Counted from the stretch's first letter, positions 3,145 through 18,979 are shown. The stretch: DNA of 32,000 bases from Promethearchaeum syntrophicum (GCF_008000775.2 NZ_CP042905.2:960001-992000), one strand, 5' to 3'. Made by a program: numbers and translations. Notes: generated by a model from the letters alone, not told the origin.

Positions 3145-3151
3145 ATATTTG

Positions 3152-4069
3152 TCAACCCTGCATAATTTTAAAAAAATTTTTGGCATTGTCAAATACAATT
3201 TTAGCAACTTCCTGTTGTTCCATTAAATGAGAAAAAGCCAGAGCGGTAATTGCATATTTTACGTTTCTAGGGGTATTTGATACACCATATTGATACGGGT
3301 GTTGATAAGGTGCATCAGTTTCAGTTACAATATTTGAAATGGGAACTTCAGATGAAAAATTTCTCATTTTTTTATTTCCATAAGCAGAACTTATTACAGA
3401 TATTATGAAACCTTGTGATGCAATTTTGTTACCCCATTCTTTAGTTGGACCAGAAAAACAATGCCACATTACTCTTGAAGGCTCAATTTCTTCCTCCTCT
3501 AAGATTTTTAAGATAATTTTATTCACGCTATCAAAATCATTAAACTCATGGTTAGGATTATCAGTGTCTACATCATTTTGGGTAGGATTTCTAACATGAA
3601 GGATGTAGGGTTTATTCAAGGTTTTTGTCTCTTGAATGATTTTTTTAAATATTTCGATTTGATGATTCCTTTTATCCAGTTTCTTAGCATGGTGAAAATC
3701 TAAACCGATTTCTCCAATTCCTAAGTAATTACTATAATTATGTGGGTTTTTAATATAATCCATCCATTGGGAAAAGTCTTCATCGTGTTTCTTCTTATTT
3801 GTAAAAGTAACAGTCTGAGGTGCCCACCCTGATGTGAATCCCATATGTTCATGACTTTCTACAAAATCTCGGATAAATTGGAGGGATTCCCAATCAACTG
3901 AACTCGAAATAATATATTTTCCCCCTTCTTTAAAAAATAAATCATACTGATTTTCATACGTTTCATCCATTCTGGCTGGATTTTGATTCCATGGAATATG
4001 ACAATGACAATCTATAAATTGTAAAAATGATTCCGGTTCTATTGGGACAATTCCCCTTTTTTTCTTCAT
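3152..4069 (-). CDS. TatD-family metal-dependent hydrolase
   Basis: The ordered TatD/amidohydrolase metal-ligand motifs are all present: DCHCHIPW (HxH), GEIGLDFHH, ILHVRN, WHCFSG and TETDAPY. The start codon lies inside the attL core. Confidence 0.75.
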   Translation of the reverse strand: MKKKRGIVPIEPESFLQFIDCHCHIPWNQNPARMDETYENQYDLFFKEGGKYIISSSVDWESLQFIRDFVESHEHMGFTSGWAPQTVTFTNKKKHDEDFSQWMDYIKNPHNYSNYLGIGEIGLDFHHAKKLDKRNHQIEIFKKIIQETKTLNKPYILHVRNPTQNDVDTDNPNHEFNDFDSVNKIILKILEEEEIEPSRVMWHCFSGPTKEWGNKIASQGFIISVISSAYGNKKMRNFSSEVPISNIVTETDAPYQHPYQYGVSNTPRNVKYAITALAFSHLMEQQEVAKIVFDNAKNFFKIMQG

Positions 4070-4073
4070 AAAA
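4060..4073. repeat. attL core (direct repeat, crossover region CTTCAT 4064-4069)
   Basis: This is an exact 14-mer copy of 18320-18333. The element-side flank AAAACACCTT (4070-4079) is the reverse complement of AAGGTGTTTT (18314-18323). Confidence 0.7.
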
Positions 4074-4258
4074 CACCTTTATCTGAAGTTTTTTTATAAA
4101 CTTTTCTAAAAGACCTATTTACTAAAAGAAATAATATTTTATAAACAAATTAAAAGAAATATATGCTCTTTGAAATACTTTTTTCAATTTATTTTTATGA
4201 TTTTTATTCCATTTTATGATATATAAATATTTACTCTTTAAACAGATAGACTTTCCAG

Positions 4259-4298
4259 CGTATTACGTTAAAAAAAAACGTATTACGAACGTATTACG
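4259..4298. promoter_or_regulatory. three copies of the 9-bp palindrome CGTATTACG (operator-like) upstream of the RHH operon
   Basis: Exact copies lie at 4259-4267, 4279-4287 and 4290-4298. The last two are 11 bp apart start to start. An AT-rich TATA-like TTTAAATTT follows at 4306-4314. Confidence 0.6.
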
Positions 4299-4368
4299 CA
4301 ATAGATTTAAATTTATCAGATAGGTTAGTTAATTATATTAATTAAATAAAAATAAAATTGATTAAATT

Positions 4369-4608
4369 ATGCCAAAAAATAAAAAAATTGAAACAGGTTC
4401 TCAAATAACATTTGGATTATTACCATCACAAAAAGAACAGTTTGAATTAGAAGCATCTGAACAACAAATTTCATTAGGTCAATTATTACGAAACAAACTA
4501 TTCGGATATGAAAAATTAACAAAAGAAAGGGAAGAAATTGGAAAGGAAATTACTGATTATTTAAAAAAGAATCTAACTAAAGAATATCTTATTAAAATCT
4601 TAAAATAA
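4369..4608 (+). CDS. ribbon-helix-helix (CopG/Arc-like) DNA-binding protein, putative
   Basis: SQITFGLLPSQKEQFELEASEQQISLGQLLRNKL reads as a beta strand, helix, turn and helix. It is the first gene after the palindrome cluster. Confidence 0.5.
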   Translation: MPKNKKIETGSQITFGLLPSQKEQFELEASEQQISLGQLLRNKLFGYEKLTKEREEIGKEITDYLKKNLTKEYLIKILK

Positions 4609-4627
4609 TACTCAGTTTGATTAAGAG

Positions 4628-4840
4628 TTGACTAATTTGGTGATATTCAAAAAGAAACATAAAGAAAATGAAGAAATTGAAAATCTATATAAAAGAGATA
4701 TTAATAAGTTAAAAACAATCAAGAAACGTGCTCTCGTAAAAAAAATTAACCAAGATTATGATATTCGAAAATTCTATGAAAATTATATGAGTATTATTAA
4801 AAATGGATTTATAAAAAAACCAAAAATGAGCAGAAAATAG
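4628..4840 (+). CDS. hypothetical Lys-rich small protein
   Basis: 70-codon ORF with a non-ATG (TTG) start. Its stop overlaps the next start (TAGTG). Support is weak. Confidence 0.35.
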   Translation: MTNLVIFKKKHKENEEIENLYKRDINKLKTIKKRALVKKINQDYDIRKFYENYMSIIKNGFIKKPKMSRK

Positions 4841-5280
4841 TGGTAAAGAAAACAAAAAAGGAAAGTAAAATGAGTAAAACAAAATACGTATATTGGGAAA
4901 CATTAGAAAATAGAAAAAAGGTCAAGAAAAAAAAGTGGATGAAGAAATTCATGAAAAATAAAATTACAACATTGACACTTGAAGAAATTTTAAAAGAGGT
5001 CAATAGACATCAGGATTATTTTTTATCAATAGTAGACGAAAATCATAGTATTCATTACCTTAATGGTTTTGTCGGTGTGGGTGCCTTAAAAGAACCTCGA
5101 GACCATCTTGGTTATCTCAATACAATAGTTATGTATAGTTGTGGATATAATCTTGATGGCAGCGAAATTAAGAAACTAAGCGAACAGGAATTCACTCTTG
5201 AAGAGGCTGAAGATATGGTAGAAGTTCTAAAAATTTGTATTGAGCGGTATAAAGAGCGTGAACATAGAAAAAAGGATTGA
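4840..5280 (+). CDS. hypothetical protein (146 aa, Lys-rich N-terminus)
   Basis: The ORF has a GTG start coupled to the upstream stop. I recognised no motif. Confidence 0.5.
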   Translation: MVKKTKKESKMSKTKYVYWETLENRKKVKKKKWMKKFMKNKITTLTLEEILKEVNRHQDYFLSIVDENHSIHYLNGFVGVGALKEPRDHLGYLNTIVMYSCGYNLDGSEIKKLSEQEFTLEEAEDMVEVLKICIERYKEREHRKKD

Positions 5281-5285
5281 AAATA

Positions 5286-5561
5286 ATGGCAAAGAAAAAT
5301 ACAATTACGAAAAAACCAACAACTCTTGACATGTTGCATGAATTTGCTGAATATACTGGAAAAGAATTTGCAGAAGTTAAAAATCTCTATGAAAAGATGT
5401 TAATTAAGGAAAAAGAAAAAAATTTCAATAAATGGGATGGTAAAATTCTTGATAAGCGAGTTCTTGTGAAGTTAAGAAATTTATATGATGAAAGTCAATT
5501 TGTATTATATTCTAAAAAATTTAATTCAATGTGGTTTCTTTATTTTTCTAAGAATGTATGA
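5286..5561 (+). CDS. hypothetical protein (91 aa)
   Basis: I chose the first ATG, giving MAKKNTITKK. The ORF track instead starts at TTG 5277, which overlaps the upstream stop. Confidence 0.5.
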   Translation: MAKKNTITKKPTTLDMLHEFAEYTGKEFAEVKNLYEKMLIKEKEKNFNKWDGKILDKRVLVKLRNLYDESQFVLYSKKFNSMWFLYFSKNV

Positions 5562-5643
5562 ATAAGATTCTTTTTTTAGATACAATAGAAGGTTGTAAAA
5601 AGGAAAATGGAATTATTAATTTTTTTATATAGTTTTATACTAT

Positions 5644-5955
5644 TTAACTAACCAAAGATTCAATATCCATACCCATATTTTGCATTATTTTTATCATACA
5701 TTCATCAATTGGTCTCAAACCATTTTTATCCAAATCTCCAGACAGGTGTTTCATTAACAAATTCATAGGTAATTCGAGATCATCAGGGATTGGAATTTCT
5801 TCTTGATAAAGTAATAATCAATTAATAATTATTTTGAAGTTGTTTTTCACAAGAGTAGGTTCTTTATCGTAAATTGATATAAAATATCCACTAAAATTGT
5901 TAATTGTTATTATTTTCTGTTGTTTTTTGACTGTTTCAGTAAATTTTACTTTCAT
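5644..5955 (-). pseudogene. 104-codon reading frame interrupted by a single in-frame TGA (5818-5820)
   Basis: My translation is MKVKFTETVKKQQKIITINNFSGYFISIYDKEPTLVKNNFKIIIN*LLLYQEEIPIPDDLELPMNLLMKHLSGDLDKNGLRPIDECMIKIMQNMGMDIESLVS*. Each half is under 60 aa, so neither appears in the ORF track. Confidence 0.4.
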
Positions 5956-6197
5956 AGATTTCACCTAAATACTCGTTAATTAATACAGATTAAAACATAT
6001 ATTTACAAAAACGTGTTTTAAATTAATATAGTATAAAAATATCCTAATCTTTTTTTGTGATTTTTTTCTTAATTTTAAACTCCTACAGAGTTTTAAAAAT
6101 TAGGAAAATTCTAATTATAAGTGAATAAAATGAAATATAAAATCATTTAAATTGACTAATTATAATTTCAGTTGAGAATTAAAAAATGATGAAAAAA

Positions 6198-6851
6198 CTA
6201 TAATTCTACATAGGGCAAATCTTCATCAGGAACACGACCATAATAATGTGAAAGTTTCAACCTTAATTGATGTCTTATATCAACTGAAAGCTGCAAAATT
6301 TTGATTTTCTCAAAATTTTTTTTAATCTTACCATTTCCTTTAAGATTCTTACTTTCTACATAAAATACTCGAGTGAAATCAATCATGTAATCGTAAATAT
6401 TTGATTTGTTTCTAATGTATGATTTAAAAAAGGGATTTCCTTTAAAAATAAAGAAGTTTTTAAATGAATAAGTCGGAGATGCTCTATCATATTTTGCCTT
6501 TTCTTCATTCGTTAATGAAAGATAATTGGCTTTAGTAATCGCATTTTTTGGTGCAACTAAGCGATTAATTCTTGTAAGATCTTCATAAAAATAGGGATTA
6601 TTAAAAATTGTTGAATGGATTTCAAATAATGGAGCTAATGAAAAAAATTGAGGTCCTATAGAACAACATGGAGTCAGTATTACTAAAAATTCAGAATTTG
6701 AAATTTCCAATTTGAAATTTGAATTCTCTTGAATTGACAAAAACGGAGTGTTTATAATTGGATGTGTATGAGCAATTCCCTTAACTATGTCACCCAAACG
6801 GAGATTTCTTTCCATTTGTTCTTCGTAAAAATCTTCAATGATCATCATCAT
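6198..6851 (-). CDS. hypothetical protein, third gene of the three-gene cassette
   Basis: 227-aa ORF. The likely start is one of the ATG triplet at 6851/6848/6845, which overlaps the upstream stop (6835-6837) by 11-17 nt. Motifs noted: LGDIVKG, FLVILTPCCSI and a C-terminal LSVDIRHQLRLKLSHYYGRVP. Confidence 0.6.
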   Translation of the reverse strand: MMMIIEDFYEEQMERNLRLGDIVKGIAHTHPIINTPFLSIQENSNFKLEISNSEFLVILTPCCSIGPQFFSLAPLFEIHSTIFNNPYFYEDLTRINRLVAPKNAITKANYLSLTNEEKAKYDRASPTYSFKNFFIFKGNPFFKSYIRNKSNIYDYMIDFTRVFYVESKNLKGNGKIKKNFEKIKILQLSVDIRHQLRLKLSHYYGRVPDEDLPYVEL

Positions 6852-7092
6852 TATCTTCTGGGTTAAAATAAAATTGTTCAATATTTACTTCTGAAGATTT
6901 TATTTTCAACTTTTCATAATTAATAAAATCTTGATTTATTTCAATTTCAGTGATTCCAAGAAATTTTCCTTCCACATCAGTTTTAATTGAAACTAAATAC
7001 TTTTCAAATGGATATTTTACAATTAGAAAAGTTTCAGGATTTTCATGCTTAAAATGACCTATTTGATCAAAAATATCATCTTCATTACTCAT
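6835..7092 (-). CDS. small acidic hypothetical protein, second gene of the cassette
   Basis: 85 aa with acidic termini (MSNEDDIFD... and ...PEDNDDDH). The ATG at 7092 overlaps the upstream TAA (7085-7087) by 8 nt, giving the string ATGAGTAA. Confidence 0.6.
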   Translation of the reverse strand: MSNEDDIFDQIGHFKHENPETFLIVKYPFEKYLVSIKTDVEGKFLGITEIEINQDFINYEKLKIKSSEVNIEQFYFNPEDNDDDH

Positions 7093-7852
7093 CTAATTTA
7101 CCAGTCTCCATATATTTTATAATTGGATCTTTAATCGAATTTCCATATTCCTCAGTAATTAATTCATGTAATTCATCTAAAACATTAAGATAATCACTTG
7201 CATTGACATCTTGTGCGTATCCATCAAAATCCAAATACAATTTTTCAACGCCATCAATAATTTTCACTTTTTCTCCAAATCTTAGATAATTTTCTTCTCT
7301 TTTTACATCTGCAAAAAAAGCAATTTCTTTAGCATCATTTAAACCAAATCTACTTAGTGGAAAAGTAGAATTATATAATTTTAGAAAATTATTTTTATCT
7401 TTTGGCATTGGACATTCATCAATATACCTTAAACCAATTCGTTCAAAAACTAAAATTGGAATATATTCAAGAAAAACTTTCATAACTTCTATTATAACTT
7501 CTCTTAGACTATTATCTGGATCTCTTTGATAAGATTTATACTTAGTTGATGAAATCGATAGAGTATTTGAGGATATCTCTAATAAATAATTGCTAGATGA
7601 TTCAAATCTCCATATGGTATTACCAATTGGTTGATCAGAAATACTTGGGATTTTGGTATCAGGAGTAATGTTAGCAAATAAGATGTTGTGTTTTATAACT
7701 TTGGATGATTTAGGGAATTCTTTCATTAATTTTAATTGAATATCCCCAATTTTAGATCCGATCATAAAGAGATTAGAATACCTAATTTGAAATATAACTT
7801 GCTTTGCAGTAGCATATTTATAGGATTTAGTAATTTTAACCATTAAGATCAC
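7085..7852 (-). CDS. TIGR04255-like hypothetical protein, first gene of the cassette
   Basis: The length is about 255 aa. The N-terminal YKYATAKQVIFQIRYS...IQLKLMKEFPK resembles, from memory, the N-terminal signature of the uncharacterised TIGR04255 family. Start is GTG at 7852 or, more likely, ATG at 7843. Confidence 0.5.
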   Translation of the reverse strand: MILMVKITKSYKYATAKQVIFQIRYSNLFMIGSKIGDIQLKLMKEFPKSSKVIKHNILFANITPDTKIPSISDQPIGNTIWRFESSSNYLLEISSNTLSISSTKYKSYQRDPDNSLREVIIEVMKVFLEYIPILVFERIGLRYIDECPMPKDKNNFLKLYNSTFPLSRFGLNDAKEIAFFADVKREENYLRFGEKVKIIDGVEKLYLDFDGYAQDVNASDYLNVLDELHELITEEYGNSIKDPIIKYMETGKLDE

Positions 7853-7921
7853 TTTGTTAGATATTCAATATATTTTTACTTATTAAAAAAAATATAATGA
7901 TCTAATAAAATTTGAATACTA

Positions 7922-7981
7922 TTATAAAGAAGATAATGAAAATATTAAAATAAAAATTGGCAAAATCATCTCTTTTGTCAT
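7922..7981 (-). CDS. 19-aa hydrophobic micro-ORF (MTKEMILPIFILIFSLSSL)
   Basis: AGGAGGA lies 9-10 nt upstream of ATG 7981, and the TAA stop is at 7922-7924. The ORF sits between the RM gene terminator tract and the cassette. Confidence 0.3.
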   Translation of the reverse strand: MTKEMILPIFILIFSLSSL

Positions 7982-8020
7982 AATTTATATTCCTCCTAAT
8001 TGATTATTTGAAAAGGTCAT

Positions 8021-8053
8021 AAAAAAAAAAAAAAGAAGAAAAAAAAAAAAGAA
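8021..8053 (-). terminator. oligo-T tract on the coding strand directly after the RM gene stop
   Basis: The plus strand reads A14-GAAG-A12-GAA at 8021-8053, which is T-rich on the minus strand 13 nt after the stop at 8066. Archaeal termination uses oligo-T. Confidence 0.45.
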
Positions 8054-8065
8054 TTAAATAATTTT

Positions 8066-11000
8066 TCAGTAACGAACTATTTTTTCTATTTCTTTTACGA
8101 TTTTCTCATCTAAACCATATAATTCATATACCAAATTATCAATGGTTCTATAATTCTTTGATATTTGGTTTTTAAAATCCCTTAACTCTTTGAAATATGA
8201 TATAATGTTTTCAAAAATATCTTTCTTCTCAATATTTAATTTCTGTTTTTTTAGAATATTAAAGAAATTATCTTTTGATTCCTGTTCGATTTCTAAATTC
8301 AATGTTTTATGTATTTTGAAATAAATATCTGAGATTGAAATTGAATATTGAAGAGAAAGATAGTCCATGAAATTATTATATTTAATGGAAAATTTGTTCC
8401 CAAATTCAATTGTTTCAATACTTAATTTTTCAATCATTTCTACTTTTGATTTATTGTTTTCAGTAATTATAGGAATTAACATATCTTTAAGATCATTAGA
8501 ATTTAATTTTGGAAAGTTCTTTTTTATTGCGTTTGCATGTTTTTTTAAATGAGTATATGTAAAGAACTTTGAATTAATTAAACTCAGTAATAATTCTAAG
8601 GAATATTCATCCTCAATTTGATTTATAACTGCACATGTATTTTTAACAATAATTTCTTCCTCGGTTATTGTTGCTAAAATTGTTTTATTAACAATCTGTT
8701 GAATAATTATTTTCTTTTGATTGAATATCGTCAGATTTCTTGGTTCTGCTAAATGTCTTCCATAGTTAATAAAGGAATCATTATTTCCACTTTTCCATAT
8801 ATTATAATATTTTGATATATTCTTTCCAGAATAAAATTTATTAGTATGTTCATGAGTTTGTAAATTGCTCAAATAAACATTTTCATCTTTGTCTCTTTGA
8901 ATTTGGGATGATTCTGCATTAAAATAAGATATTCCCTTTCCTTTTTGGTAAACCTTGACGCCAAATATTGTAAAGTATTTCTCTTTTAGTTTTAATGTAT
9001 TTTTTTCCAGAAATTCCAAAGAATTTATTCTAAATCTAAATTTTTCATCAAGTTTTTCAATTGGTAATTGATTAAATTCATCCTTCTCTAGCTCAAAAAC
9101 ATTTAATTCTGATCGAGGGATTAATTTTAAATCTTTTAGTTCTATGATTTCTGAGCTATTTATTGTATTCGGGAAAGTAATTATGGCTGAAGGATAATCC
9201 ACATCTTCAAAAACATTATCTCCTAAATCAATTACTTTTAGTTTTTTGGAAAAATGTAATAATTCTCTTCTTACATCAAAATAATCTGGCATTTCTATTA
9301 TTCCATTGGGTACGATATAACCAAAAGCTCCATTAGGTGAAAGTAATGATAAAGCTTTTTTTATAAACATTTTAAAGGAATTTACAACTCGGAAACATAC
9401 ATCCTCGTATTCTTTCTTTAAAAATTTCAATGAATCTGCATTAAATTCAGCACCCCAAGGAGGATTACCAATTATTATATCAAATTTCTTTTTTGGAAGA
9501 ATATTTGGATAATTCTCTTCCCAATTAAATGCAGAAGTTTTATCAATGGAACTATCATTGATTAAAGAATTTCCACATTTAATTATGTTTGATAAATTCA
9601 TTAATTTTTCATTACGTTGTAGAATCTTAAAGAATATTGACAATTTAGTTAGTTCTACAGATTCTTCATTAATATCAACACCAAAAATATTATTTTTAAT
9701 AATAGGAATAGCTTCTTTAATTTCTTGAAATTTTTCAAGTTTAAAATAAGTTGGAACTTTCTTATCTTTCGATTTAATCTTTTTATTTTTATTTTTAGTT
9801 ATATATTTACCTTGCATTTCTTTGAAATCCATTATTTCTCTTTTTATATCTAATAGAATATCGACTGTTTTAATTAAAAATGCGCCTGAACCACAAGAAA
9901 GATCTAAAATTTTGACATTTAGTAATTTTTCATCTAATTCTTCTATGTTTTCTTCATATTCAGCAATTAGATTTGGTATTGATGGAATTCCCCCCTTTTT
10001 AGATAAAAATGGAATAATTGTATTTCTACATAAATATTCTGTGATAAATTCAGGAGTGTAAAAAATACCTTCCTTTTTACGAATCTTTATATCATCCCCT
10101 TTCAATTTCTCAATATCTGAAATAGATTGTTCAAATATATGTCCTAAAATTAGTATACTTATTTCACTCGTAAAATCAAACCTACCCATGAGAATTATAT
10201 TTAGGATTAATTCATTAAGCTCTCCACTGAAAATTTTAATAATTTCTTGTAAATATTCATTTATATCTTGTCTCTCCCTCAATTTAGAATTTAGATAAAT
10301 TTCTTTGTAATAATTCTTTCTTCTTAGGTCTCTAAACGAAATTTCTGGAGGAAAATCTTCTTCAAATAACCCACCATTGAAACCAAAAATTTTTATTGGA
10401 GATTCACTGCCTGAATTAAATTTATTAAATAAAACATTAATTCCTTGATATACAAATGTAGATTTCTCATTAATAACTAATGGGTTTTTAAGAATCGGTA
10501 ATATTGAGTTTTCAAGAATATTTTTACTTATTTTATTTGTACTCTCTGCAAAATATATAAATAATATTCTGTTAAGGAAAATTTGTGCGTATTTTATTGA
10601 AAGGTTTACACCTAAACCTGAAAATTGAAATTCCTTTATCAGCATCAATCGAGTTTCATGATATATTTTGTAGAATTCAGAAGAAAATGATTTTTCCTCT
10701 TTATCAGATTCTAAATAGAGTGTTTCTAAGAATTTTTCATCAATAATCCGTCTTTTAGAAAAAATTCCAATGAATTCTTTGATTTTTGATTCATCTTTCA
10801 GAATGTCTCTAAATTTAAATTGGTAATAACGCTGATTACCTTTAGTATAATCTAACAATATAAATACATCATAATTAGTACATACACCATAAGGTATTGG
10901 ATATTCGCTCATTTTAGTCCATGTTTGGGAAACTGGAGTCTCATAACCTATTTTTTTACGATATTGTTTTCCAAATAAATCCTTTTGTTTGAGCCCTTTA

Positions 11001-11281
11001 CATTCGAAATAAACGGCTATTTTATCTTTATTAGGGTTTAATATAGGAAACTCCATATTTCCTCTTTCATGTTGCAAGTATTCTATTCCTATTTCATAAT
11101 CCAAAATATCATGTAAAATTGTGTTAGCAAATTCAATATAGGCTTTTTTCTCGTCTTTTAATTGCCCCGTGTCTAATAGATTCAACCATCTGCTAATAGC
11201 TTCTTTTTGAACTTTATTTACTTCTACATTTTCACATAAACGCTTAATAGTGGTTTCTTTGAATAATGCACCATTTACCAT
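8066..11281 (-). CDS. Type IIG/IIL single-polypeptide restriction-modification enzyme (Eco57I/MmeI-like, N6-adenine methyltransferase fused to an N-terminal PD-ExK nuclease)
   Basis: Motifs read in order: N-terminal MEF(77)...YFECK(93-95) nuclease-like E...ExK, FNGGLF, GIFYTPEFI, SAM motif I ILDLSCGSGAFL, FGVDIN, and catalytic motif IV IIGNPPWG (DNA 9455-9466). About 460 aa follow as a target-recognition-sized C-terminus. Confidence 0.8.
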   Translation of the reverse strand: MVNGALFKETTIKRLCENVEVNKVQKEAISRWLNLLDTGQLKDEKKAYIEFANTILHDILDYEIGIEYLQHERGNMEFPILNPNKDKIAVYFECKGLKQKDLFGKQYRKKIGYETPVSQTWTKMSEYPIPYGVCTNYDVFILLDYTKGNQRYYQFKFRDILKDESKIKEFIGIFSKRRIIDEKFLETLYLESDKEEKSFSSEFYKIYHETRLMLIKEFQFSGLGVNLSIKYAQIFLNRILFIYFAESTNKISKNILENSILPILKNPLVINEKSTFVYQGINVLFNKFNSGSESPIKIFGFNGGLFEEDFPPEISFRDLRRKNYYKEIYLNSKLRERQDINEYLQEIIKIFSGELNELILNIILMGRFDFTSEISILILGHIFEQSISDIEKLKGDDIKIRKKEGIFYTPEFITEYLCRNTIIPFLSKKGGIPSIPNLIAEYEENIEELDEKLLNVKILDLSCGSGAFLIKTVDILLDIKREIMDFKEMQGKYITKNKNKKIKSKDKKVPTYFKLEKFQEIKEAIPIIKNNIFGVDINEESVELTKLSIFFKILQRNEKLMNLSNIIKCGNSLINDSSIDKTSAFNWEENYPNILPKKKFDIIIGNPPWGAEFNADSLKFLKKEYEDVCFRVVNSFKMFIKKALSLLSPNGAFGYIVPNGIIEMPDYFDVRRELLHFSKKLKVIDLGDNVFEDVDYPSAIITFPNTINSSEIIELKDLKLIPRSELNVFELEKDEFNQLPIEKLDEKFRFRINSLEFLEKNTLKLKEKYFTIFGVKVYQKGKGISYFNAESSQIQRDKDENVYLSNLQTHEHTNKFYSGKNISKYYNIWKSGNNDSFINYGRHLAEPRNLTIFNQKKIIIQQIVNKTILATITEEEIIVKNTCAVINQIEDEYSLELLLSLINSKFFTYTHLKKHANAIKKNFPKLNSNDLKDMLIPIITENNKSKVEMIEKLSIETIEFGNKFSIKYNNFMDYLSLQYSISISDIYFKIHKTLNLEIEQESKDNFFNILKKQKLNIEKKDIFENIISYFKELRDFKNQISKNYRTIDNLVYELYGLDEKIVKEIEKIVRY

Positions 11282-11385
11282 AATTACAATATTGAATGAT
11301 CCTAATAAAAAATCTCTATTAATGACATAATTACTTTCAGTTATTTAATTCAAAATTCTAAAAATTATTTTATTAAAGTCTGGTA

Positions 11386-11412
11386 TTCTTCTTCTTCTTT
11401 TTTTTTTTTTTT
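11386..11412. repeat. (TTC)4-T15 low-complexity tract upstream of the RM gene
   Basis: Read directly from the sequence. It is the inverted counterpart of the A-rich tract at 8021-8053. Confidence 0.8.
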
Positions 11413-11439
11413 ATTTTCCATTTTTAAAAATGTTAAAAA

Positions 11440-11718
11440 TTAGGAAAGTATTTCTTGTTTTCTTTTCTCTAATTCTTGGATAATCACATTAATAGCATTC
11501 AACTCAGTCCCACGAACAGATTTACCTTTTAATAATTCTGCAGTTCCTCTGTACCATGATGTCATTGGTTCAAATTTTGATTTACCATCTTGAATTGGTT
11601 TTTTTACATCTTGTTTTTTTACAACTTTATTCTCAGGAGTAATTTTTCTCTTAGGTTCTGATTTTGGAATATCTATTGTTTTTTCATCCAATAAATCTCC
11701 CATATTAAATTTGGCCAT
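11440..11718 (-). CDS. hypothetical protein (92 aa; basic N-terminal half, helical C-terminus)
   Basis: I moved the start to ATG 11718 (MAKFNMGDLL) because GAGGAGGT (11727-11734) lies 8 nt upstream. The longest ORF, to 11763, has no such signal. Confidence 0.6.
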   Translation of the reverse strand: MAKFNMGDLLDEKTIDIPKSEPKRKITPENKVVKKQDVKKPIQDGKSKFEPMTSWYRGTAELLKGKSVRGTELNAINVIIQELEKRKQEILS

Positions 11719-12013
11719 TTGATTTAACCTCCTCGAATAAAAATTTGATTCTTTCTTTTTCATTTGGTTCTAAATCGACTTCAACACCTAATTTCGCAAA
11801 TGGAACTATAAATTTCTTTAAAATATTATTATCCAAAATCCTATTTTCAATCATTTCTTTACGTAATTCCACTAATTTCTTTCGACTTATTCCAGAATCA
11901 AATTTAATATTCTTTTTAATTTGCGCAACAATATTGTCGAAGGTTAAGCCCTCGGCTAATAATTTTCGTGCTAAATTATTTTTTTTTTCATTTTTTGCCT
12001 TCATAATTTTCAC
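11705..12013 (-). CDS. hypothetical small protein, first gene after the iteron region
   Basis: 102-codon ORF starting at GTG 12013 or ATG 12004 (MKAKNEKK). The NLARKLLAEGLTFDNIVAQI segment could be a helix-turn-helix. Confidence 0.5.
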   Translation of the reverse strand: MKIMKAKNEKKNNLARKLLAEGLTFDNIVAQIKKNIKFDSGISRKKLVELRKEMIENRILDNNILKKFIVPFAKLGVEVDLEPNEKERIKFLFEEVKSNGQI

Positions 12014-12021
12014 TTAATTGA

Positions 12022-12100
12022 CATAAGAAACTATTAGTATTTAAATAATTCTCATAAGAAACTATTAGTATCTAAAAACTTTATAAGAAACTAATAGTAT
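12022..12100. repeat. three 19-bp direct repeats (iteron-like): CATAAGAAACTATTAGTAT x2, TATAAGAAACTAATAGTAT x1
   Basis: Copies lie at 12022-12040, 12053-12071 and 12082-12100, with a period of 29-31 bp. Each contains the 9-bp palindrome ACTA-W-TAGT. Confidence 0.85.
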
Positions 12101-12294
12101 TTAATAATAAAATAGAAGGATTATAAATATATACAAATATTTCTAAAATTAATTTTAAGAATAAGTTTCACTATAAAATTAGTATTTTTATTGATATAAA
12201 GAATTGAGAGTATTAAATTAATAATAGAAAAAATCAAAAAAAATATTTTTTTTGGTTAAATATATAGAAGATAAAATATTCCCGAAGAGTGGAA

Positions 12295-12357
12295 AATAGT
12301 TTTTTACCAAAATCGGTTTAAGTACATTAATATAACCAATATAGGTAAAAAACTATT
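12295..12357. repeat. perfect 14-bp inverted repeat AATAGTTTTTTACC / GGTAAAAAACTATT with a 35-nt spacer
   Basis: The arms are at 12295-12308 and 12344-12357, read directly. They lie in the 470-bp non-coding gap downstream of the helicase-like gene. Confidence 0.8.
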
Positions 12358-12485
12358 ATCATGGGAACAGAATGAGTTTCAAAAATATTATTTAAAGAAA
12401 GAGACTTTTTTGATTAGTAGAATTTAAGAGATTAAATTAAACATTAAATTATTTGTTATTTGAAGGTTTTTGAGAATTCAAAAAA

Positions 12486-14465
12486 TTAAGTTAAATCTGC
12501 TAAATTGTCTACTACTTTGTAGTATGATTTAGGTCTACTTGCTTTCTTAACTAAAGGTTTTTTCTTGATTTTTTCTACAATACCTTCTTTGATTAAGTTA
12601 TTAAGGATAGAATAAATTTGTTTTATTGTAGAAATTTTTCTAATTTCACAACTATTGTAAATTTCTAAACATTCTTCTACACTCCCCAATCCTTTATCTT
12701 TTAATTTTTTGATAAACTTATTGTATTTTTCTTCAGGTATACAATTGAAATTATGAATTTGACTTTCTGGAAATTTAGAATTTTTTACATCAAAATTACT
12801 CATAATATATAATATTTTTTCAAAAGGATGGTGTAGAGTTCTTAGTCTTTCACCCATTTGTAGTGATTGAATTGGACCATAAAGTTCTGTTAATATCTCT
12901 AAAGGAATATTCAAGCATCTACTTATTAATTTACGAATATTAACAGGATACTGACAAGAACCAAATTGAATACCAACATCAAAATCCTTAAATTTATTTT
13001 TACCATCAGTATTGTAAAAGTGCTCAAACTCTACTTGTATATTATATTTTTTAATAAATTCTTTTAAGTCGAATTTTAGTTGATTTTTTATTCTCTTGAA
13101 TGCTGTTATGAAAATTTTTTCGTTTTTATGTTTTAAAAGAATCTGTTTTAACTTCTTTAACAAATTATAATATTTAGAAGTAAATTGGTTAGTTTTTGTA
13201 CTGATTAGAGTATATTTTGCGTAATTTCCAGATGTGAGTTTATTTACACGTTTGAATTGTGGTATTATATTAGGATCATATATGATATCTACCTTATCTT
13301 TAAATTCAGGCATAATTTCATAAAACATTTCTTCTGACATCCCAGAGGCTGGGATTGTTGTATGATTGCTTTTTTCTATTATCTCAACAACATTTTTACG
13401 TGTGTTTTTCAAATAGTTAAATAATAGATTTTTATCAATATCTATCCTATCTTTTAGAGGAATATCATTTTCTTTAATATTGTAAACATCAATAAAAATT
13501 TTAAAAAGATTAGGAAATTGATTATATTCTAATTTTATTTTATTATGTTTATTTTCTATTATACAACTTTTAAAATAATCACTCCATTCTTCAATTTCTT
13601 TTAAAGTATAGATCTTAGTTAGGTTTTCAAGTAGTTCTATTATTTTATTTTTCTTTTTACGAATAGAGTAGATCTTCTTATCTTTATTTATTATACACTT
13701 CAAAATTTCTTTCAACAATAACCATATTTCTTCTTGATCTGGATTATTATATTCAAAGAAAACCTTGTCTACTAATTTTATATAATCCTTTATTTTCAAA
13801 GACTTAGGAAAACTTATTAACTCAAACAACAAACCCATAAATCCTTCATCGAAAACAAGATCCATATCTTTGTGTTTTTCAACTAAATCACCTGGAAAAT
13901 TCGTATTAAGATAGGAAATATTTAGAAAAATTTCCTTTCCGAAACCAATTTCGTCTGTTTGAGATGCTATATTTTTCAAATCCATATATAAACAACCATT
14001 ACTTCTAAATTCACAAATATCTCTACAATATGTTTTTGTTAAATATCCTTTTCTAACCATGTTAAGAAAATCCTTGTCTTTACAACATTTATTACAAGTA
14101 TAATTTTGTTTTATTTTTTCTTTTATATCTTGAACAAATAAAATATGACTAATAATGTCTTTTTGTGATTCTGTTAAAGGATATGTTCTTGAAGTTAGAA
14201 ACGAAAACTCTTTATCTTTGTTTTTTACATCTTGAATAATCTCAGACTCTATTTCATGATTTTGAGTAAAAATTATCACAGTCTTATCATTTTCAGAATA
14301 ATATTTTACTATTGTATAGGTTTTTCCAGATCCTTGTGTATCTCGAAGCAATGTAATTCGTTTATCTGTATTCTCTAATCTATATTCAATTTTTCCTGAA
14401 TGATAGTTTAGAAAATCAAGAATTTTAAAATCATTAGAAACTGATATTGTATTTTCTAACGACAT
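12486..14465 (-). CDS. SF2-helicase-like P-loop NTPase with a Cys-rich insertion and a C-terminal winged-helix-like region (candidate replication protein of the element)
   Basis: Motifs read: Walker A TQGSGKTY (DNA 14319-14333), Ia-like VIIFTQNHE, Walker B/motif II DLVFDEGF, and VI-like LQMGERLR. Six Cys residues lie between motifs I and II (CNKCC...CRDIC...C). The C-terminal IKQIYSILNNLIKEGIVEK looks like a winged helix. Confidence 0.5.
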   Translation of the reverse strand: MSLENTISVSNDFKILDFLNYHSGKIEYRLENTDKRITLLRDTQGSGKTYTIVKYYSENDKTVIIFTQNHEIESEIIQDVKNKDKEFSFLTSRTYPLTESQKDIISHILFVQDIKEKIKQNYTCNKCCKDKDFLNMVRKGYLTKTYCRDICEFRSNGCLYMDLKNIASQTDEIGFGKEIFLNISYLNTNFPGDLVEKHKDMDLVFDEGFMGLLFELISFPKSLKIKDYIKLVDKVFFEYNNPDQEEIWLLLKEILKCIINKDKKIYSIRKKKNKIIELLENLTKIYTLKEIEEWSDYFKSCIIENKHNKIKLEYNQFPNLFKIFIDVYNIKENDIPLKDRIDIDKNLLFNYLKNTRKNVVEIIEKSNHTTIPASGMSEEMFYEIMPEFKDKVDIIYDPNIIPQFKRVNKLTSGNYAKYTLISTKTNQFTSKYYNLLKKLKQILLKHKNEKIFITAFKRIKNQLKFDLKEFIKKYNIQVEFEHFYNTDGKNKFKDFDVGIQFGSCQYPVNIRKLISRCLNIPLEILTELYGPIQSLQMGERLRTLHHPFEKILYIMSNFDVKNSKFPESQIHNFNCIPEEKYNKFIKKLKDKGLGSVEECLEIYNSCEIRKISTIKQIYSILNNLIKEGIVEKIKKKPLVKKASRPKSYYKVVDNLADLT

Positions 14466-14648
14466 TTTTTACTCAACCTATTTTCTGCCATATATCTCGT
14501 ATATTTTTTAAATATTTAAAACTTTGTATGGAAATTTGCCAGAATAGGGTTTTTGGTTGATATATTTAAAGATATACCATTTAAACCATAAATATTTATA
14601 TATCCTCAAATACCATACACTTAAAAGTCTCAAATTTGTATTATATAT

Positions 14649-14762
14649 GTGGATAAGAAAGAAATATCTGATAAAGTATTGATAAAACTCACCTGTTGCT
14701 GCCATGCTTCGATGTTTTTTATTTTAGTCAATTCTTAAAAAATATTTCTTTTTCTTATCCAC
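14649..14762. repeat. imperfect inverted repeat GTGGATAAGAAAGAAATAT / ATATTTCTTTTTCTTATCCAC
   Basis: The arms are at 14649-14667 and 14742-14762. The outer 9 bp are perfect and there is a 2-nt bulge. The repeat lies in the 550-bp divergent intergenic region. Confidence 0.6.
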
Positions 14763-15017
14763 GTTTTTTTCTCTATTTTCAGATAAGACATTTTACCAAA
14801 ACCATTACCTTTACAAAGCAAATTTTAACATTTTACAAATATCGTAAAATCTACTTAATTTACATAAAAAATTCAAAACTCATTTTTCCTATTCAAATGC
14901 TACAAAAATGATTTTTTCCTATATTAAATCGTATTTCCCACAAGATTTTTACTAATCCATATAATAAATTTTATGCTTATTGAAAAATATTAAAAATTAA
15001 TTTGGAAAATTGTTCAT

Positions 15018-15599
15018 TTGAGTAATTTAACCCATAGTATTAAATCCTCAAATTTATTTTATATATATAACGAAGTAATTCAAAATGGAGTGTTAAAAAT
15101 AATGATATTAAGGTCTAAAAGATATAGAAATGCTGAACTACTAAGTTCCTTCAATTTAAGTACAACATATAGAATACTAAGACATAAAATGAATGATATT
15201 CCTCCACTACATACTTGTAATTATCCAACAATTAATTGTAAAAATCGATTAGAAAATGGTTTATGTAGAAATTTACAGTGTTGTTATGAAATAGATCGTT
15301 GTTGGGATAACATTCCAATCAAAAGTAGAGGGTTTATCGCATGTAGTGTGATGGATATAAATATAAATAAGGTTAAAGAAGTAAAAATGATAAAGAAGAA
15401 GAAAAGAAAAAAAAGGTCTAAAAAGAAACTTGAAAGCAGTATTGTTGTAAAGAAAGGTAAACACAAATGCGAATATTGTGATAAAATGACCCATAGACAA
15501 ATCATCCACTCAAACAGATTTCAAAATAAAATATATTTTTTTTGTTCGATGAAATGTAAAGAAAATTGGATCTATAAAATACACGAAAAGGTGAAATAA
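15018..15599 (+). CDS. Cys-rich zinc-finger protein (C-terminal FCS/TRASH-like CxxC...CxxxC)
   Basis: HKCEYCDKMTH...YFFCSMKCKENW is present, along with an earlier cluster CNYPTINCKN...CRNLQCCYEIDRC and a KKKKRKKRSKKK linker. Start is TTG 15018 or ATG 15102 (MILRSK). Confidence 0.5.
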   Translation: MSNLTHSIKSSNLFYIYNEVIQNGVLKIMILRSKRYRNAELLSSFNLSTTYRILRHKMNDIPPLHTCNYPTINCKNRLENGLCRNLQCCYEIDRCWDNIPIKSRGFIACSVMDININKVKEVKMIKKKKRKKRSKKKLESSIVVKKGKHKCEYCDKMTHRQIIHSNRFQNKIYFFCSMKCKENWIYKIHEKVK

Positions 15600-15603
15600 A
15601 GAA

Positions 15604-16476
15604 ATGGAAATAACAAAATCAGACATTCAGATGGGTTTGGAGAAGTATTTGAAAGAATCTAATAATCCAGATAAGTTGTTAAATGCGGAAATATATGAGA
15701 AAAAAATAATCAATCAACAAATGACAAATCAAGAAATTATGAAATTTTATCGCAATTTTGATAAAGTTATTTCTCCTTATGATATTGATATGGCAATAAA
15801 ATCTATTAATGATTTTATCAATCACAATATAAATCCAAAAGAAATTGTGTTCAAATATGATATCCCTGCAATTTTTGAATATTATAAAAAATCTTCTAAA
15901 CACCAAGATATTTTGAAAAGATTAAAAAAATATGACAAAATATTCAATGGAGATATGACAGTCCAGAAAATTATTGAATATTATCCAGACCTTCATTCTC
16001 GGTATGATATTGATGTTATCAAAAAATCTCTTGATGGGTTTATTACTTATTCGATAGGAATTATGTATGAAGAATTTCGTTATAAAATTCTCAAAAAACA
16101 TTTCCCAAAGGTTATTTGGGGAAAAGGTGGAAAATCTGTTCCCGATTTTAAAATAACACAAAAAAATGGAGATGTTATTTTTGAATCTACGAAAATATTG
16201 GATTTTTCAAATAAAATAAAAATATTGTTTAAACACCATAACAGAGAAATTCAAAGTGCCAAAGAATACATGGACGAAACAGGCTTTGAGCCAAAAGTTC
16301 GTGTACACATTTTCAACAAGTACAATAATAAAATATATGTAGAGTATATCCCACAAGAGGTGATTGTGTCAGACATCACGTTGACGAATGAGAATTACCA
16401 TATCTTTAAAGTTGATGAGTTTTATGATGAACATTCGTTGAGGACATGGATAAAGAATTACAAACTATCATGTTAG
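15604..16476 (+). CDS. hypothetical protein with an internal tandem duplication and a possible nuclease-like C-terminal half
   Basis: AGGTGA lies 9 nt upstream of the ATG. Residues 40-72 (MTNQEIMKFY..YDIDMAIKSINDFI) repeat at 118-147 (MTVQKIIEYY..YDIDVIKKSLDGFI). VPDF...DVIFESTK is only loosely PD-(D/E)xK-like. Confidence 0.55.
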   Translation: MEITKSDIQMGLEKYLKESNNPDKLLNAEIYEKKIINQQMTNQEIMKFYRNFDKVISPYDIDMAIKSINDFINHNINPKEIVFKYDIPAIFEYYKKSSKHQDILKRLKKYDKIFNGDMTVQKIIEYYPDLHSRYDIDVIKKSLDGFITYSIGIMYEEFRYKILKKHFPKVIWGKGGKSVPDFKITQKNGDVIFESTKILDFSNKIKILFKHHNREIQSAKEYMDETGFEPKVRVHIFNKYNNKIYVEYIPQEVIVSDITLTNENYHIFKVDEFYDEHSLRTWIKNYKLSC

Positions 16477-16900
16477 AACATCTGAATTGTCGCCCATTTA
16501 AACCTAACACAGAATCACCAAATAGATTAAAAACTATTTAAATTTGAAAAAAAAGTGAAATGACCTCTTAAAATATGCTTTTGGATATTTTTAGAACGAA
16601 AATGTCCTTTTTTTATTATTTTTTTAACACAAAAACGTACCTATATTTAGAACGTTTTCGTACCTTTTTTTGAAAAGAAAAGGGACGTTTTTACACCTTT
16701 TATAATATGAAATAATTTTGAGAATTTATCAATTTGTTAGAATTAATCTATTTTTATATATCGAATTACAGATGTTTTTGAAGGCGATAGTCGAACAAAT
16801 GTTTTCAATAAAGATAATAACCTATTTGAAGAAAAAAGTATAGTAGACCCACAAAACTACTGTTTTTTTGGTATAAATCATTAAAAAACAATATATTTAT

Positions 16901-16921
16901 CGTAATACGTTTCGTAATACG
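16901..16921. promoter_or_regulatory. two copies of CGTAATACG (same palindrome as 4259-4298, central base flipped)
   Basis: Copies lie at 16901-16909 and 16913-16921, 12 bp apart start to start. They are 38 bp beyond the integrase stop codon. Confidence 0.6.
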
Positions 16922-16958
16922 GAACTTTTCTTAAAGAACAGACAAAAATAGGAAAAAA

Positions 16959-18269
16959 TTAGTCTTCTTTCAGAGGATCTATGATTTTCTTTTTATTAAG
17001 AGATTTTACAATGAATTGGAAGTGTTTGTTTAATTCATCCAATTGTTTTTTCAAATTTATATTGGTTTCTTCTATTTTAGAATATTTTTGTATTATTTCT
17101 TGATTTATATTTTCTAACATAGTTATTTTAGTCGCTTGTGAAGTTATTGTATCAGTAATTTTCTCCATTTTGACATTCGTTTCTTTAATATACTCATTTC
17201 TCCCCAATATTAAAATTTTAGATTCAATATTTTCTTTATACCAATTTACGAAGGATTCTTGATCATGTGAAATTTCTTGATAAGCACCAACTAAAACAGC
17301 TGAGTGCCCCATAGTTAATTTGAAAAGATCGCTCCCTTGAGCATCTAAATCTTTAGATCCATTTGATTCATACCACCTCCTTAATGATTTTGGAGTTATG
17401 TTTTTAAGATCTAAAAGATTGCATGTTTCTAATAATTGGTCGTAAAACAAATTTCTACTCATTTTTGAATAATTATCATTAAATCTTTTATCAACTACAA
17501 AAAGCCAAGATCTTTCGGTTAAATTCTCACCCTTTCTTTCTCGATCTTTTAAATAAGTGTGAATAGAATCACATGCTTCAGAACTAAAACAAGTTTGAAA
17601 ACGAGCTTGAGTTTTTTGTCGATTACCCTCTATATAGCACATATTTATTTTTTTGAAATAACCTCGATTGAAATCTTGAATTTTCAGATTGAATAAATCA
17701 GTATCATCCAATCCTGAACTAATTTTACATAATAATATCGTTTTATTTTTAATTGAACTAAATTGGTTATATATCTTCTTTAACCAGTCCTTTCGTTGTT
17801 CTGATGATATACGTTCATTATCATCTCCATTTCGCCATATTTTTTCATTTTTTCCCTTTTTATTCTGGATTGATTCTTTTTTGTTTATTATAACAGGAAC
17901 TTTATTCCTCTTATAAAATGAAGCAATTTTGGAAAAAGCATATTGCTTTGCTGAATTCCAACTCAGTGGTTTTTCAATTTTCTTATTATTGATATTATTC
18001 TTTTTACCGATTAGATAATAGAAGAAACCAAATAATTGTTTTTTAGCAATTTCAGCTTGATTTATTGGATCAATTAATAAATCTTGGTGATGTTCTTTTA
18101 TCAATTCTTCAGGAGTTTTATCTAGAAACTTACAATATTTTTCCAGATTTCCATATCTTGCACGTTTAGATTTTACTCCTTCAACCCATTTTTGAACGTA
18201 TCTATCCTTTGAATATTTAGAAAAATCTCTTTTTCCTTTAATAAATTTTTTTGAAGTTGTTTTTTTCAT
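16959..18269 (-). CDS. tyrosine recombinase / integrase with a C-terminal coiled-coil extension
   Basis: Integrase-like features read: N-terminal SAM-like segment (SAKQYAFSKIASFYKRNKV), YIEGNRQKTQARFQTCFS (beta-hairpin Lys), PKSLRRWYES (Arg-II box) and TMGHSAVLVGAY (His...Tyr nucleophile). About 100 extra heptad-rich residues follow the Tyr. Confidence 0.7.
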   Translation of the reverse strand: MKKTTSKKFIKGKRDFSKYSKDRYVQKWVEGVKSKRARYGNLEKYCKFLDKTPEELIKEHHQDLLIDPINQAEIAKKQLFGFFYYLIGKKNNINNKKIEKPLSWNSAKQYAFSKIASFYKRNKVPVIINKKESIQNKKGKNEKIWRNGDDNERISSEQRKDWLKKIYNQFSSIKNKTILLCKISSGLDDTDLFNLKIQDFNRGYFKKINMCYIEGNRQKTQARFQTCFSSEACDSIHTYLKDRERKGENLTERSWLFVVDKRFNDNYSKMSRNLFYDQLLETCNLLDLKNITPKSLRRWYESNGSKDLDAQGSDLFKLTMGHSAVLVGAYQEISHDQESFVNWYKENIESKILILGRNEYIKETNVKMEKITDTITSQATKITMLENINQEIIQKYSKIEETNINLKKQLDELNKHFQFIVKSLNKKKIIDPLKED

Positions 18270-18319
18270 ATTTATATATATAATTTTAAATTTATAAATA
18301 ATTACTATATTTTAAGGTG

Positions 18320-18333
18320 TTTTCTTCATAAAA
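18320..18333. repeat. attR core (direct repeat, crossover region CTTCAT 18324-18329)
   Basis: This is an exact 14-mer copy of 4060-4073. It is preceded by the element-side arm AAGGTGTTTT (18314-18323). Confidence 0.7.
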
Positions 18334-18396
18334 AAAAATATATATAATGTCAAAAAGATTTTTTGGATATGAAGATACAATTCTTAATAGAGTCGT

Positions 18397-18978: not shown

Positions 18979-18979
18979 A

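Follow-up and report, generated by a model that had tools for sequence, protein, structure and literature searches.

We analysed an AT-rich stretch of 32,000 nucleotides (nt) from the chromosome of Promethearchaeum syntrophicum MK-D1 (GCF_008000775.2, NZ_CP042905.2:960001-992000), which we refer to as the window and in which positions are counted from the first letter. Between a TatD-family hydrolase gene and the divergent gene of a 193-amino-acid (aa) protein, the window contains a 14,260-bp segment with an integrase gene at one end, a helicase gene, the gene of a type IIG restriction-modification (R-M) enzyme and a number of small open reading frames (ORFs). Its GC content is 24.6%, compared to 29.9% in the flanks. 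We interpret this segment as an integrated mobile element (Table 1).

The segment is bracketed by the direct repeat TTTTCTTCATAAAA at positions 4060-4073 and 18320-18333, with 14,260 bp between the two copies and no further copy in the window at up to one mismatch. The flanks on the element side, AAAACACCTT (4070-4079) and AAGGTGTTTT (18314-18323), are exact reverse complements of each other, and these two inverted flanks are the only exact copies of the 10-mer AAAACACCTT on either strand of the window. Joining the element ends gives the attachment (att) site attP, AAGGTGTTTT-CTTCAT-AAAACACCTT, a perfect 10-6-10 palindrome, while joining the host sides gives attB, CCCTTTTTTT-CTTCAT-AAAAAAAAAT. 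The two sites have 14 bp in common, namely the 6-bp centre plus, in each arm, the 4 bp next to it. Because the crossover falls somewhere within this 14-bp repeat, the limits of the element can be written in the two equivalent ways listed in Table 1. The initial annotation of the window had already placed the 14-mer in direct orientation at exactly these positions and had rebuilt the joined element ends as a perfect 10-bp inverted repeat around a 6-bp spacer, which we could reproduce exactly. Its description of attB as degenerate has to be corrected, as the joined host site is in fact a perfect 7-6-7 palindrome (TTTTTTT-CTTCAT-AAAAAAA).

Table 1. Features of the integrated element and its host flanks in the window (Arg-I, first catalytic arginine of tyrosine recombinases; a dot marks features without a strand).
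Feature	Position	Strand	Remarks
Integrated element, 14,260 bp	4074-18333, equally 4060-18319	.	Segment missing from L117, L001 and L077 (empty sites)
attL, TatD-side junction: TTTTTTT-CTTCAT-AAAACACCTT (host arm, shared 6-bp centre, element arm)	4057-4079	+	Identity block 4060-4073
attR, integrase-side junction: AAGGTGTTTT-CTTCAT-AAAAAAAAA (element arm, shared centre, host arm)	18314-18338	+	Identity block 18320-18333
Host TatD-family hydrolase gene	3152-4069	-	Pfam TatD_DNase 1e-41; ORF intact after integration
Host gene of 193-aa predicted membrane or secreted protein, TatD neighbour in the empty site	18397-18978	+	Synteny in L001, L077 and L117
Integrase, 436 aa, divergent family	16959-18269	-	Tyrosine-recombinase fold; K294-x-x-R297, H322, Y330; Asp188 at Arg-I position
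Candidate replacement TatD promoter, TTTATAAA box in the left end of the element	4093-4100	-	-31 to -24 from TatD ATG
Likely integrase promoter, TTTATAAA box	18291-18298	-	-29 to -22 from integrase ATG; leaderless or short-leader mRNA
XPD/DinG-like superfamily 2 (SF2) helicase, 659 aa, DSAG12_01456	12486-14465	-	Candidate replication or maintenance protein; C-terminal winged helix
Type IIG R-M enzyme, Eco57I/MmeI type, 1071 aa, defence cargo	8066-11281	-	Pfam Eco57I 4e-29, N6_Mtase, TaqI_C specificity domain, MmeI_Mtase
Three co-oriented ORFs	6198-7852	-	TIGR04255-family protein (7085-7852), 85 aa (6835-7092), 227 aa (6198-6881)
Four small ORFs at the left end, 79, 70, 146 and 94 aa	4369-5561	+	No detectable family
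Two overlapping small ORFs, 107 and 102 aa	11440-12013	-	107-aa product weakly resembles 102-aa ORF of the L110 element
Three iteron-like repeats CATAAGAAACTAWTAGTAT, ~19 nt, ~30 bp spacing	12021-12107	.	Palindromic core ACTAWTAGT in each
Basic Cys-rich (Zn-ribbon-like) ORF, start uncertain (15018-15599), and 290-aa ORF (15604-16476)	15018-16476	+	No family match

Taken by itself, the 14-mer direct repeat is at chance level and not significant. It cannot be used as stand-alone evidence because the window holds 28 exact direct-repeat pairs of at least 14 nt. From composition, about one copy per 4.3-Mb genome is expected, and the other Lokiarchaeial loci contained a single copy in 817 kb searched, namely at the TatD start of a congeneric genome (L077, see below). 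For each of the 269 repeat pairs of at least 12 nt in the window, we reconstructed the hypothetical junction and compared the palindrome arms. The TTTTCTTCATAAAA pair yielded the longest junction palindrome, with arms of 10 nt; the next one reached 8 nt and most had 2-4 nt. A 14-nt repeat pair with a junction reaching 10 nt was present in only six of 200 first-order Markov windows. In combination, the repeat and the rebuilt palindrome are more than chance.

To find relatives, the TatD protein was searched against one genome per species, which returned two metagenome-assembled genomes (MAGs) of Promethearchaeum sp. (TatD identity 85% and 81%). Neither carries the element. In one of them (L001), a 926-aa gene, the 193-aa gene, 67 bp of intergenic sequence and TatD follow each other, and the window minus the element aligns colinearly with this locus across both genes and the intergenic region. 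In the other (L077), the order is a 925-aa gene, a 197-aa gene, a short spacer and TatD. Read in window orientation, the empty site is CCCCTTTTTTTCTTCATAAATTAAAAAA in L001 (core stretch ...CCCCTTTTTTTCTTCATAAATT...) and CCCCTTTTTTTTCTTCATAAAAAAAAAAAAGT in L077.

An exact-protein look-up of the window TatD additionally led to an empty site in the strain itself. This locus (L117) represents 12.2 kb of the 37.6-kb contig DRR199588_72 from the Logan assembly of MK-D1 run DRR199588, and TatD adjoins the 193-aa gene and a 921-aa gene there. Compared to the window with positions 4074-18333 deleted, it is 100.000% identical over 10,069 bp (0 mismatches, 0 gaps). Compared to the intact window, it gives two matches, 1-4073 and 18320-24329, and their overlap is exactly the 14-nt core. 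Its attB, read in context, is ATTCCCCTTTTTTTCTTCATAAAAAAAAATATATAT and contains precisely the joined host site CCCTTTTTTTCTTCATAAAAAAAAAT that had been predicted for the window. The check proposed in the initial annotation, namely to look for an empty site between TatD and the 193-aa gene, was thus answered by two congeneric MAGs and one contig of the same strain.

Run DRR199588 belongs to the gene-expression data set of MK-D1 (Imachi et al., PMC7015854). Both the host flanks and a paralogous element (L081, contig DRR199588_165) are present in this run. The element proteins of 436, 1071, 659 and 290 aa had no exact record in the assembled-contig collection that holds the DRR199588 contigs. The element was absent from this sample or too rare to be assembled, with a fragmented assembly as a further possibility. 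No transcript can skip 14 kb, and therefore chromosomes with the empty site existed in that culture. We conclude that a single strain has, in the course of its history, acquired or lost the element exactly at the 14-bp core, and that this movement was scarless and recent.

The hexamer CTTCAT present at attL and attR is also the target hexamer of the three independent empty sites (L001, L077 and L117). The identity of both junction hexamers with the ancestral target argues for homology-dependent conservative recombination and not for an insertion as known from Tn916. In the latter case, the element would be a tyrosine-recombinase transposon of the Tn916/Tn1549 type, which inserts into T-rich/6-bp/A-rich targets through 6-bp staggered cuts without crossover homology, and the TatD start would be one of many sites. 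Tn916 prefers targets of the form T-rich/N6/A-rich, and attB (T7-N6-A9) has this composition; the element arms end in TTTT and AAAA. Members of the integrase family are found at diverse non-tRNA sites (PfkB, guaA and a metallophosphatase gene), and Tn1549 Int is among the structural matches of the integrase, both of which would suit such a transposon. Insertions of the Tn916 type normally leave one foreign coupling sequence, however, whereas here both hexamers are those of the target. The 14-bp identity also exceeds the need of a staggered cut, and conjugation genes were not found among the element genes. We consider an origin of this type improbable.

Formally, the bases at the element ends also allow a reading as 10-bp terminal inverted repeats (AAAACACCTT...AAGGTGTTTT) next to a 6-bp target-site duplication (CTTCAT), as expected for a cut-and-paste or self-synthesising transposon that is mobilized by a DDE transposase or a casposase and carries the recombinase as a passenger. 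A transposase, Cas1 or PolB domain was detected in none of the ORFs with Pfam, NCBIfam or PHROGs, and the recombinase gene abuts the end of the element in every family member examined. Further, the empty site of the same strain is scarless, which fits conservative excision or a site that was never occupied and does not fit transposon footprints. This explanation appears highly improbable to us.

We therefore propose, with a probability of about 0.88, that positions 4074-18333 constitute an integrative mobile element of P. syntrophicum MK-D1, best classed as cryptic and plasmid-like, that integrated by conservative site-specific recombination at the TatD start. The element would have entered the chromosome through recombination of attP with attB, the latter comprising TatD codons 1-4 together with the bases immediately upstream. 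The element recombinase most likely binds one monomer per arm. By analogy with XerA at dif and Cre at loxP, cleavage would take place at the edges of the CTTCAT overlap, followed by strand exchange through a Holliday junction. Archaeal dif sites have an 11-6-11 architecture, with cleavage at the edges of the spacer (PMC8371274).

The complement of CTTCAT is ATG AAG, codons 1 and 2 of TatD, and the centre and left arm of attB are made up of codons 1-4 (ATG AAG AAA AAA). The target is therefore the 5' end of a protein gene, as had been annotated. TatD orthologues occur in 87 Asgard loci. Integration keeps the TatD ORF intact. The native 67-bp region between TatD and the divergent 193-aa gene, which holds the block AAAAAGATTTTTTG conserved in all three species, is now located 14 kb away from TatD. 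On the element side, the promoter-like box that the initial annotation had noticed upstream of the TatD ATG corresponds to a TTTATAAA octamer, and an AGGTG contributed by the att arm lies at -10 to -6 from the ATG. The box and AGGTG appear placed to take over TatD expression, and replacement of the TatD promoter by an element promoter is plausible, as the geometry fits. The same octamer is found at the likely integrase promoter and also in L081, at -30 to -23 relative to the paralogous integrase. Across the window, TTTAWAWA occurs at -29 to -32 before 5 of 28 ORF starts (integrase, 11705-12013, the ORF at 4840, the rebuilt TatD and host ORF 29804-30232). Three of these starts belong to element genes and one to TatD with its rebuilt upstream region, and this spacing suggests leaderless transcripts. 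Several host genes instead have GGAG/GGTG-like motifs close to the ATG.

The integrase ORF starts 45 nt from the att core at attR (the core lies 45-64 nt upstream of the ATG) and is intact and of full length in comparison to its homologues. A Pfam search of the window protein gave no PF00589 match at E<=0.01, and the XerD-type match in NCBIfam was weak (7e-4) and far below the family cut-off. We identified 42 homologues, all of them from Promethearchaeota, Lokiarchaeota or Hermodarchaeota MAGs or from unnamed metagenome contigs, and many carry precomputed PF00589 matches. A profile of 20 integrase sequences matched archaeal XerA (4a8e, 7e-5) and XerD. The AlphaFold (AF2) model of the integrase (predicted local distance difference test score, pLDDT, 86.6) has a two-domain fold with a core-binding and a catalytic domain. 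Foldseek placed XerA (5hxy/4a8e), IntI (2a3v), XerH and Cre at the top (E 2e-7 to 1e-3), with Tn1549 Int and lambda Int as further matches and XerA as the best one. The expectation of a tyrosine-recombinase core, initially raised by the architecture of the att site, agrees with the alignment and the structural model, in which the gene adjoining attR encodes a tyrosine-recombinase fold. No relative of the integrase family was detected in IMG/VR, GenBank phages or PLSDB plasmids.

In the residue alignment, K294-S-L-R297 falls on the HxxR motif (HQLRH in XerA, HVLRH in XerD). The LGH motif is matched by G321-H322, and Y330 takes the place of the nucleophile (the region of the catalytic Tyr in XerA). 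The motif SSGLDDvDL of the family corresponds to GLRVSEL of XerA and XerD, which puts Asp188 at the position of the first catalytic Arg. Column counts from 41 full-length family members showed R217, K294, R297, G321 and Y330 in all sequences (41/41), Asp188 and K219 in 40/41 and H322 in 38/41. R217 and K219 are located in a beta-hairpin, and the invariant R217 might compensate for the missing Arg-I. Residues 359-426 form one long predicted C-terminal helix (coiled coil) that is found neither in XerA nor in Cre. Judged by alignment and model, the 436-aa protein appears to belong to an Asgard-only family of tyrosine recombinases with an atypical active site, in which one defining feature fails. 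A review of archaeal tyrosine recombinases lists the consensus R...HxxR...Y, the SSV1 type R...KxxR...Y as well as a pNOB8 type with R...YxxR...Y, and does not mention Asgard enzymes (PMC8371274). The scarless gain or loss of the element in MK-D1 cultures suggests that an Asgard-only recombinase clade with D...KxxR...H...Y, in which Asp takes the place of Arg-I, is active in vivo. We regard this as a tentative proposal, with the odds slightly against it.

The helicase is a candidate for any autonomous replication of the element. A word-indexed protein search returned only the protein itself, and an exhaustive HMMER search yielded 30 representatives of the family in 1.8 billion proteins. Conserved residues include G45/K48 (Walker A), D206/E207 (DE motif) and four cysteines between them (C124/C147/C151/C158), and the C-terminal winged helix-turn-helix (wHTH), likewise conserved, matches PadR. 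An AF2 model based on a 17-sequence alignment (pLDDT 85.6, predicted template modelling score 0.82) retrieved DinG (6fwr, 9e-14) and XPD (9p55/4a15/3crv) in Foldseek, with E-values of the top matches from 1e-13 to 1e-10. With an SF2 motor and a four-Cys, putatively iron-sulfur-binding insertion, the predicted protein has the characteristics of the XPD/DinG (Rad3) family. At two further loci (L115 and L116), a member of the helicase family comes after a NikA-like ribbon-helix-helix fragment and a 154-aa ORF.

The type IIG enzyme (PADLOC REase_MTase_IIG, 5e-37) is the sole cargo recognised by PHROGs/PADLOC. Long tracts of A-run/GAA and TTC/T-run at 8007-8052 and 11386-11428 pair as an imperfect inverted repeat of 43 nt with 77% complementarity, which exactly brackets the gene and may mark it as a separately acquired cassette. 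Next to it, the product of 7085-7852(-) matched TIGR04255 (NCBIfam, 1e-21), and the 85-aa and 227-aa ORFs had no match in Pfam, PADLOC or PHROGs. The resemblance of the 107-aa product to the 102-aa ORF of another element (L110) was found by tblastn (6e-4) in a small database. The iteron-like repeats occupy a non-coding gap of 470 bp that has the helicase gene upstream and the 102-aa ORF directly downstream. They may represent an operator or a replication origin. In the right part of the element, ORF 15018-15599 ends in a Cys-rich Zn-ribbon-like motif that is preceded by a Lys/Arg run, and the 290-aa ORF contains an internal duplication (15771-15818 versus 15996-16043, 75% identical). Rfam detected only a tRNA-Val at 30864-30936 in the window, outside the element.

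Neither capsid, portal and terminase genes nor conjugation genes were detected in the element with Pfam, NCBIfam, PHROGs or PADLOC, which agrees with the initial annotation. A provirus of an unknown Asgard virus, integrated by the same att mechanism, would account for this result if its structural proteins were too divergent to be recognised. About half of the ORFs are without a detectable family, and CRISPR-targeted Asgard mobile elements lacking an identifiable capsid homologue have been reported, which their authors were unable to assign to either viruses or plasmids (bioRxiv 10.1101/2021.07.29.453957). On the other hand, none of the 10 ORFs tested had a PHROGs match, no virion match was obtained in Pfam, and the integrase family is present neither in IMG/VR nor in GenBank phage records. 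The cargo that can be recognised consists of a helicase, an R-M enzyme and DNA-binding proteins. A provirus seems unlikely to us, and we retain the classification as a plasmid-like element.

In other Asgard genomes, further members of the integrase family are found beside ordinary host genes, at the edge of differing cargo. MK-D1 itself has a second element (L081), which adjoins PfkB and has an integrase with 70% identity. In L081, a 1254-aa protein (13436-17200) combines a CHC2 zinc finger with a Toprim domain (DnaG-type primase), and therefore the two integrase paralogues of MK-D1 serve elements with different replication modules. In Harpocratesius repetitus (L082), the integrase element adjoins guaA, and another one (L109) adjoins a metallophosphatase gene and carries a TFIIB gene. 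A pRN-like wHTH together with a D5_N/DUF5906 primase-helicase is encoded in L110-L112. Cargo common to the window element and L081, L082, L109 and L110 was limited to the integrase, plus one weak match of a small ORF.

The position upstream of the integrase that is occupied by a half-site in the window element is taken by an unsplit perfect palindrome in L081 (AACATTTTG-TTAAAG-CAAAATGTT, 9917-9940, 61-84 nt upstream of the integrase). The arms of the two elements look homologous because they differ by only four transitions (AAAACACC versus AAAATGTT). Using the relatives L113 and L114, the host boundary of L081 could be narrowed to about 9888-9916; homology to the PfkB upstream regions of the relatives stops ~5-30 bp from the palindrome. 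A 9-mer at 18120, considered as a candidate for the far end of L081, was rejected as not significant, since it has three copies in 21 kb of this locus. L109 likewise has an unsplit palindrome upstream of its integrase (about 9942-9972), with 12-7-12 architecture (ATTAAATTCCAA-ATCGATA-TTGGAAATTAAT). The near-identical elements L110 (9940-9985) and L112 (about 7680-7700), which originate from different samples, differ just upstream of the integrase gene, where an indel of ~16 bp takes out one half of a long quasi-palindrome with the centre TTTTTACGTAAAAA.

Several observations weigh against integration by the element-encoded recombinase as proposed here. First, the first catalytic Arg (box I, GLRxxEL), which all characterised tyrosine recombinases possess, is replaced by Asp in nearly the entire integrase family (40/41), and therefore catalysis by the 436-aa protein is not assured. 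Second, we recognised no excisionase-like gene in the element. Third, the unsplit palindromes of L081, located at the apparent host boundary, and of L109 are not predicted by a simple split-attP model. In these elements, the attB sites could share a whole arm, the palindrome could double as an operator, or the copies could be arranged differently. Fourth, the circular attP junction (AAGGTGTTTTN6AAAACACCTT) had 0 matches in the viral contigs of IMG/VR. The junction sequence expected in an excised circle of the window element is AAGGTGTTTTCTTCATAAAACACCTT. The attP pattern also gave 26 matches in Joint Genome Institute (JGI) metagenomes, which we rejected as unrelated bacterial terminator-like hairpins with other spacers and without element proteins nearby. 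Lastly, the empty-site contig derives from complementary DNA and/or carried-over genomic DNA, and the missing exact protein records are no proof that the element was absent from the DRR199588 sample. The contig crosses both divergent and convergent genes and probably reflects carried-over genomic DNA. A contig of 37 kb from a run designated as RNA also implies substantial carry-over of genomic DNA in that library.

The element is of a known general kind, a cryptic integrative element. It combines a divergent Asgard-only integrase and an unusual target at a start codon with direct evidence of recent mobility. A search of the literature accessible to us returned no earlier description of this element in MK-D1 and no report of mobile elements in P. 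syntrophicum. MK-D1 is the reference cultured Asgard archaeon, and occupied and empty sites can now be compared at base resolution within one strain. The reference genome and the culture of the published expression data are 14 kb different, including the type IIG enzyme, which matters for methylome, transcriptome and transformation studies. In the integrase family, a residue regarded as essential deviates from the R...HxxR...Y tetrad, which is relevant to the mechanism of recombinases. For archaeal integrative elements, insertion at a start codon, with a TATA box supplied by the element at leaderless distance, is an uncommon choice of target. To our knowledge, no genetic system exists for the P. 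syntrophicum lineage. The defined attP and attB, together with a candidate recombinase, could be tested as an integration tool. If the D...KxxR...H...Y clade is active, the 26-bp attP and the ~20-bp attB at the start of TatD would together amount to a minimal integration system of natural origin, which could serve as the first tool for site-specific genetics in a cultured Asgard archaeon.

Among known systems, the cryptic integrated elements (CIEs) of thaumarchaea (Krupovic et al. 2019, PMC6563490) resemble the MK-D1 element as multigene archaeal elements with short att repeats, a tyrosine integrase, replication-type proteins and R-M cargo but without a virion or conjugation module, and were likewise studied by comparing occupied and empty sites in relatives. 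CIEs target tRNA genes (39), intergenic regions (15) and the 3'-distal parts of protein genes (14), whereas the element described here resides in an Asgard host at the 5' start codon of a protein gene. The integrases of CIEs belong to XerC/D-type arCOGs (PMC6563490), while that of MK-D1 falls into a separate Asgard-only family. The designation 'cryptic integrated element' of Krupovic et al. fits the MK-D1 element best. Aloposons (PMC8813620) were considered as well and are not comparable, as they are giant-gene elements targeting tRNA genes.

The nearest Asgard precedent is Yucahu-i, an integrative plasmid of Atabeyarchaeia (Valentin-Alvarado et al. 2024, PMC11529989). Both elements have an Asgard host, a size of ~11-14 kb and a helicase, the integrase gene comes first beside a short AT-rich att site (11 bp, AATTAACTTAT, in Yucahu-i), and occupied and empty genomes coexist. 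We found no sequence relationship between the two. Yucahu-i encodes an SF3 helicase and a Holliday-junction resolvase and was observed in circular form (PMC11529989), whereas the MK-D1 element has an XPD/DinG-like helicase and a 10-6-10 att core, and no circle was seen.

The KxxR box II of the MK-D1 integrase is shared with the SSV1-type integrase (She et al. 2004, via PMC8371274), and an intact integrase gene with the att site outside the gene is shared with the pNOB8 type (via PMC8371274). An assignment to the 'suicidal' SSV1 type was rejected because the att site lies outside the integrase gene and the ORF is not split, and an assignment to the pNOB8 type because box II reads KxxR and not YxxR. 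In addition, both consensus patterns begin with an Arg that is not present at the aligned position. With the Tn916/Tn1549 integrases, the MK-D1 system has in common the inverted repeats at the joined ends around a 6-bp crossover, a target of T-run, 6 bp and A-run, and the structural match to Tn1549 Int; it differs in junction hexamers that equal the target, the absence of a conjugation module and a single conserved attB.

The site architecture is that of XerA/dif and Cre/loxP, with inverted arms around a 6-bp centre, palindromic partner sites on both sides and XerA as the best match in sequence and structure. The MK-D1 integrase is longer than XerA by 150 residues, has the C-terminal coiled coil, and carries KxxR instead of HxxR and Asp instead of Arg-I. 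In contrast to both systems, that of MK-D1 is borne by the element and joins two different sites that share only the inner 4 bp of each arm. Two palindromic partner sites with the same centre and shared inner arms represent the geometry of simple tyrosine-recombinase systems.

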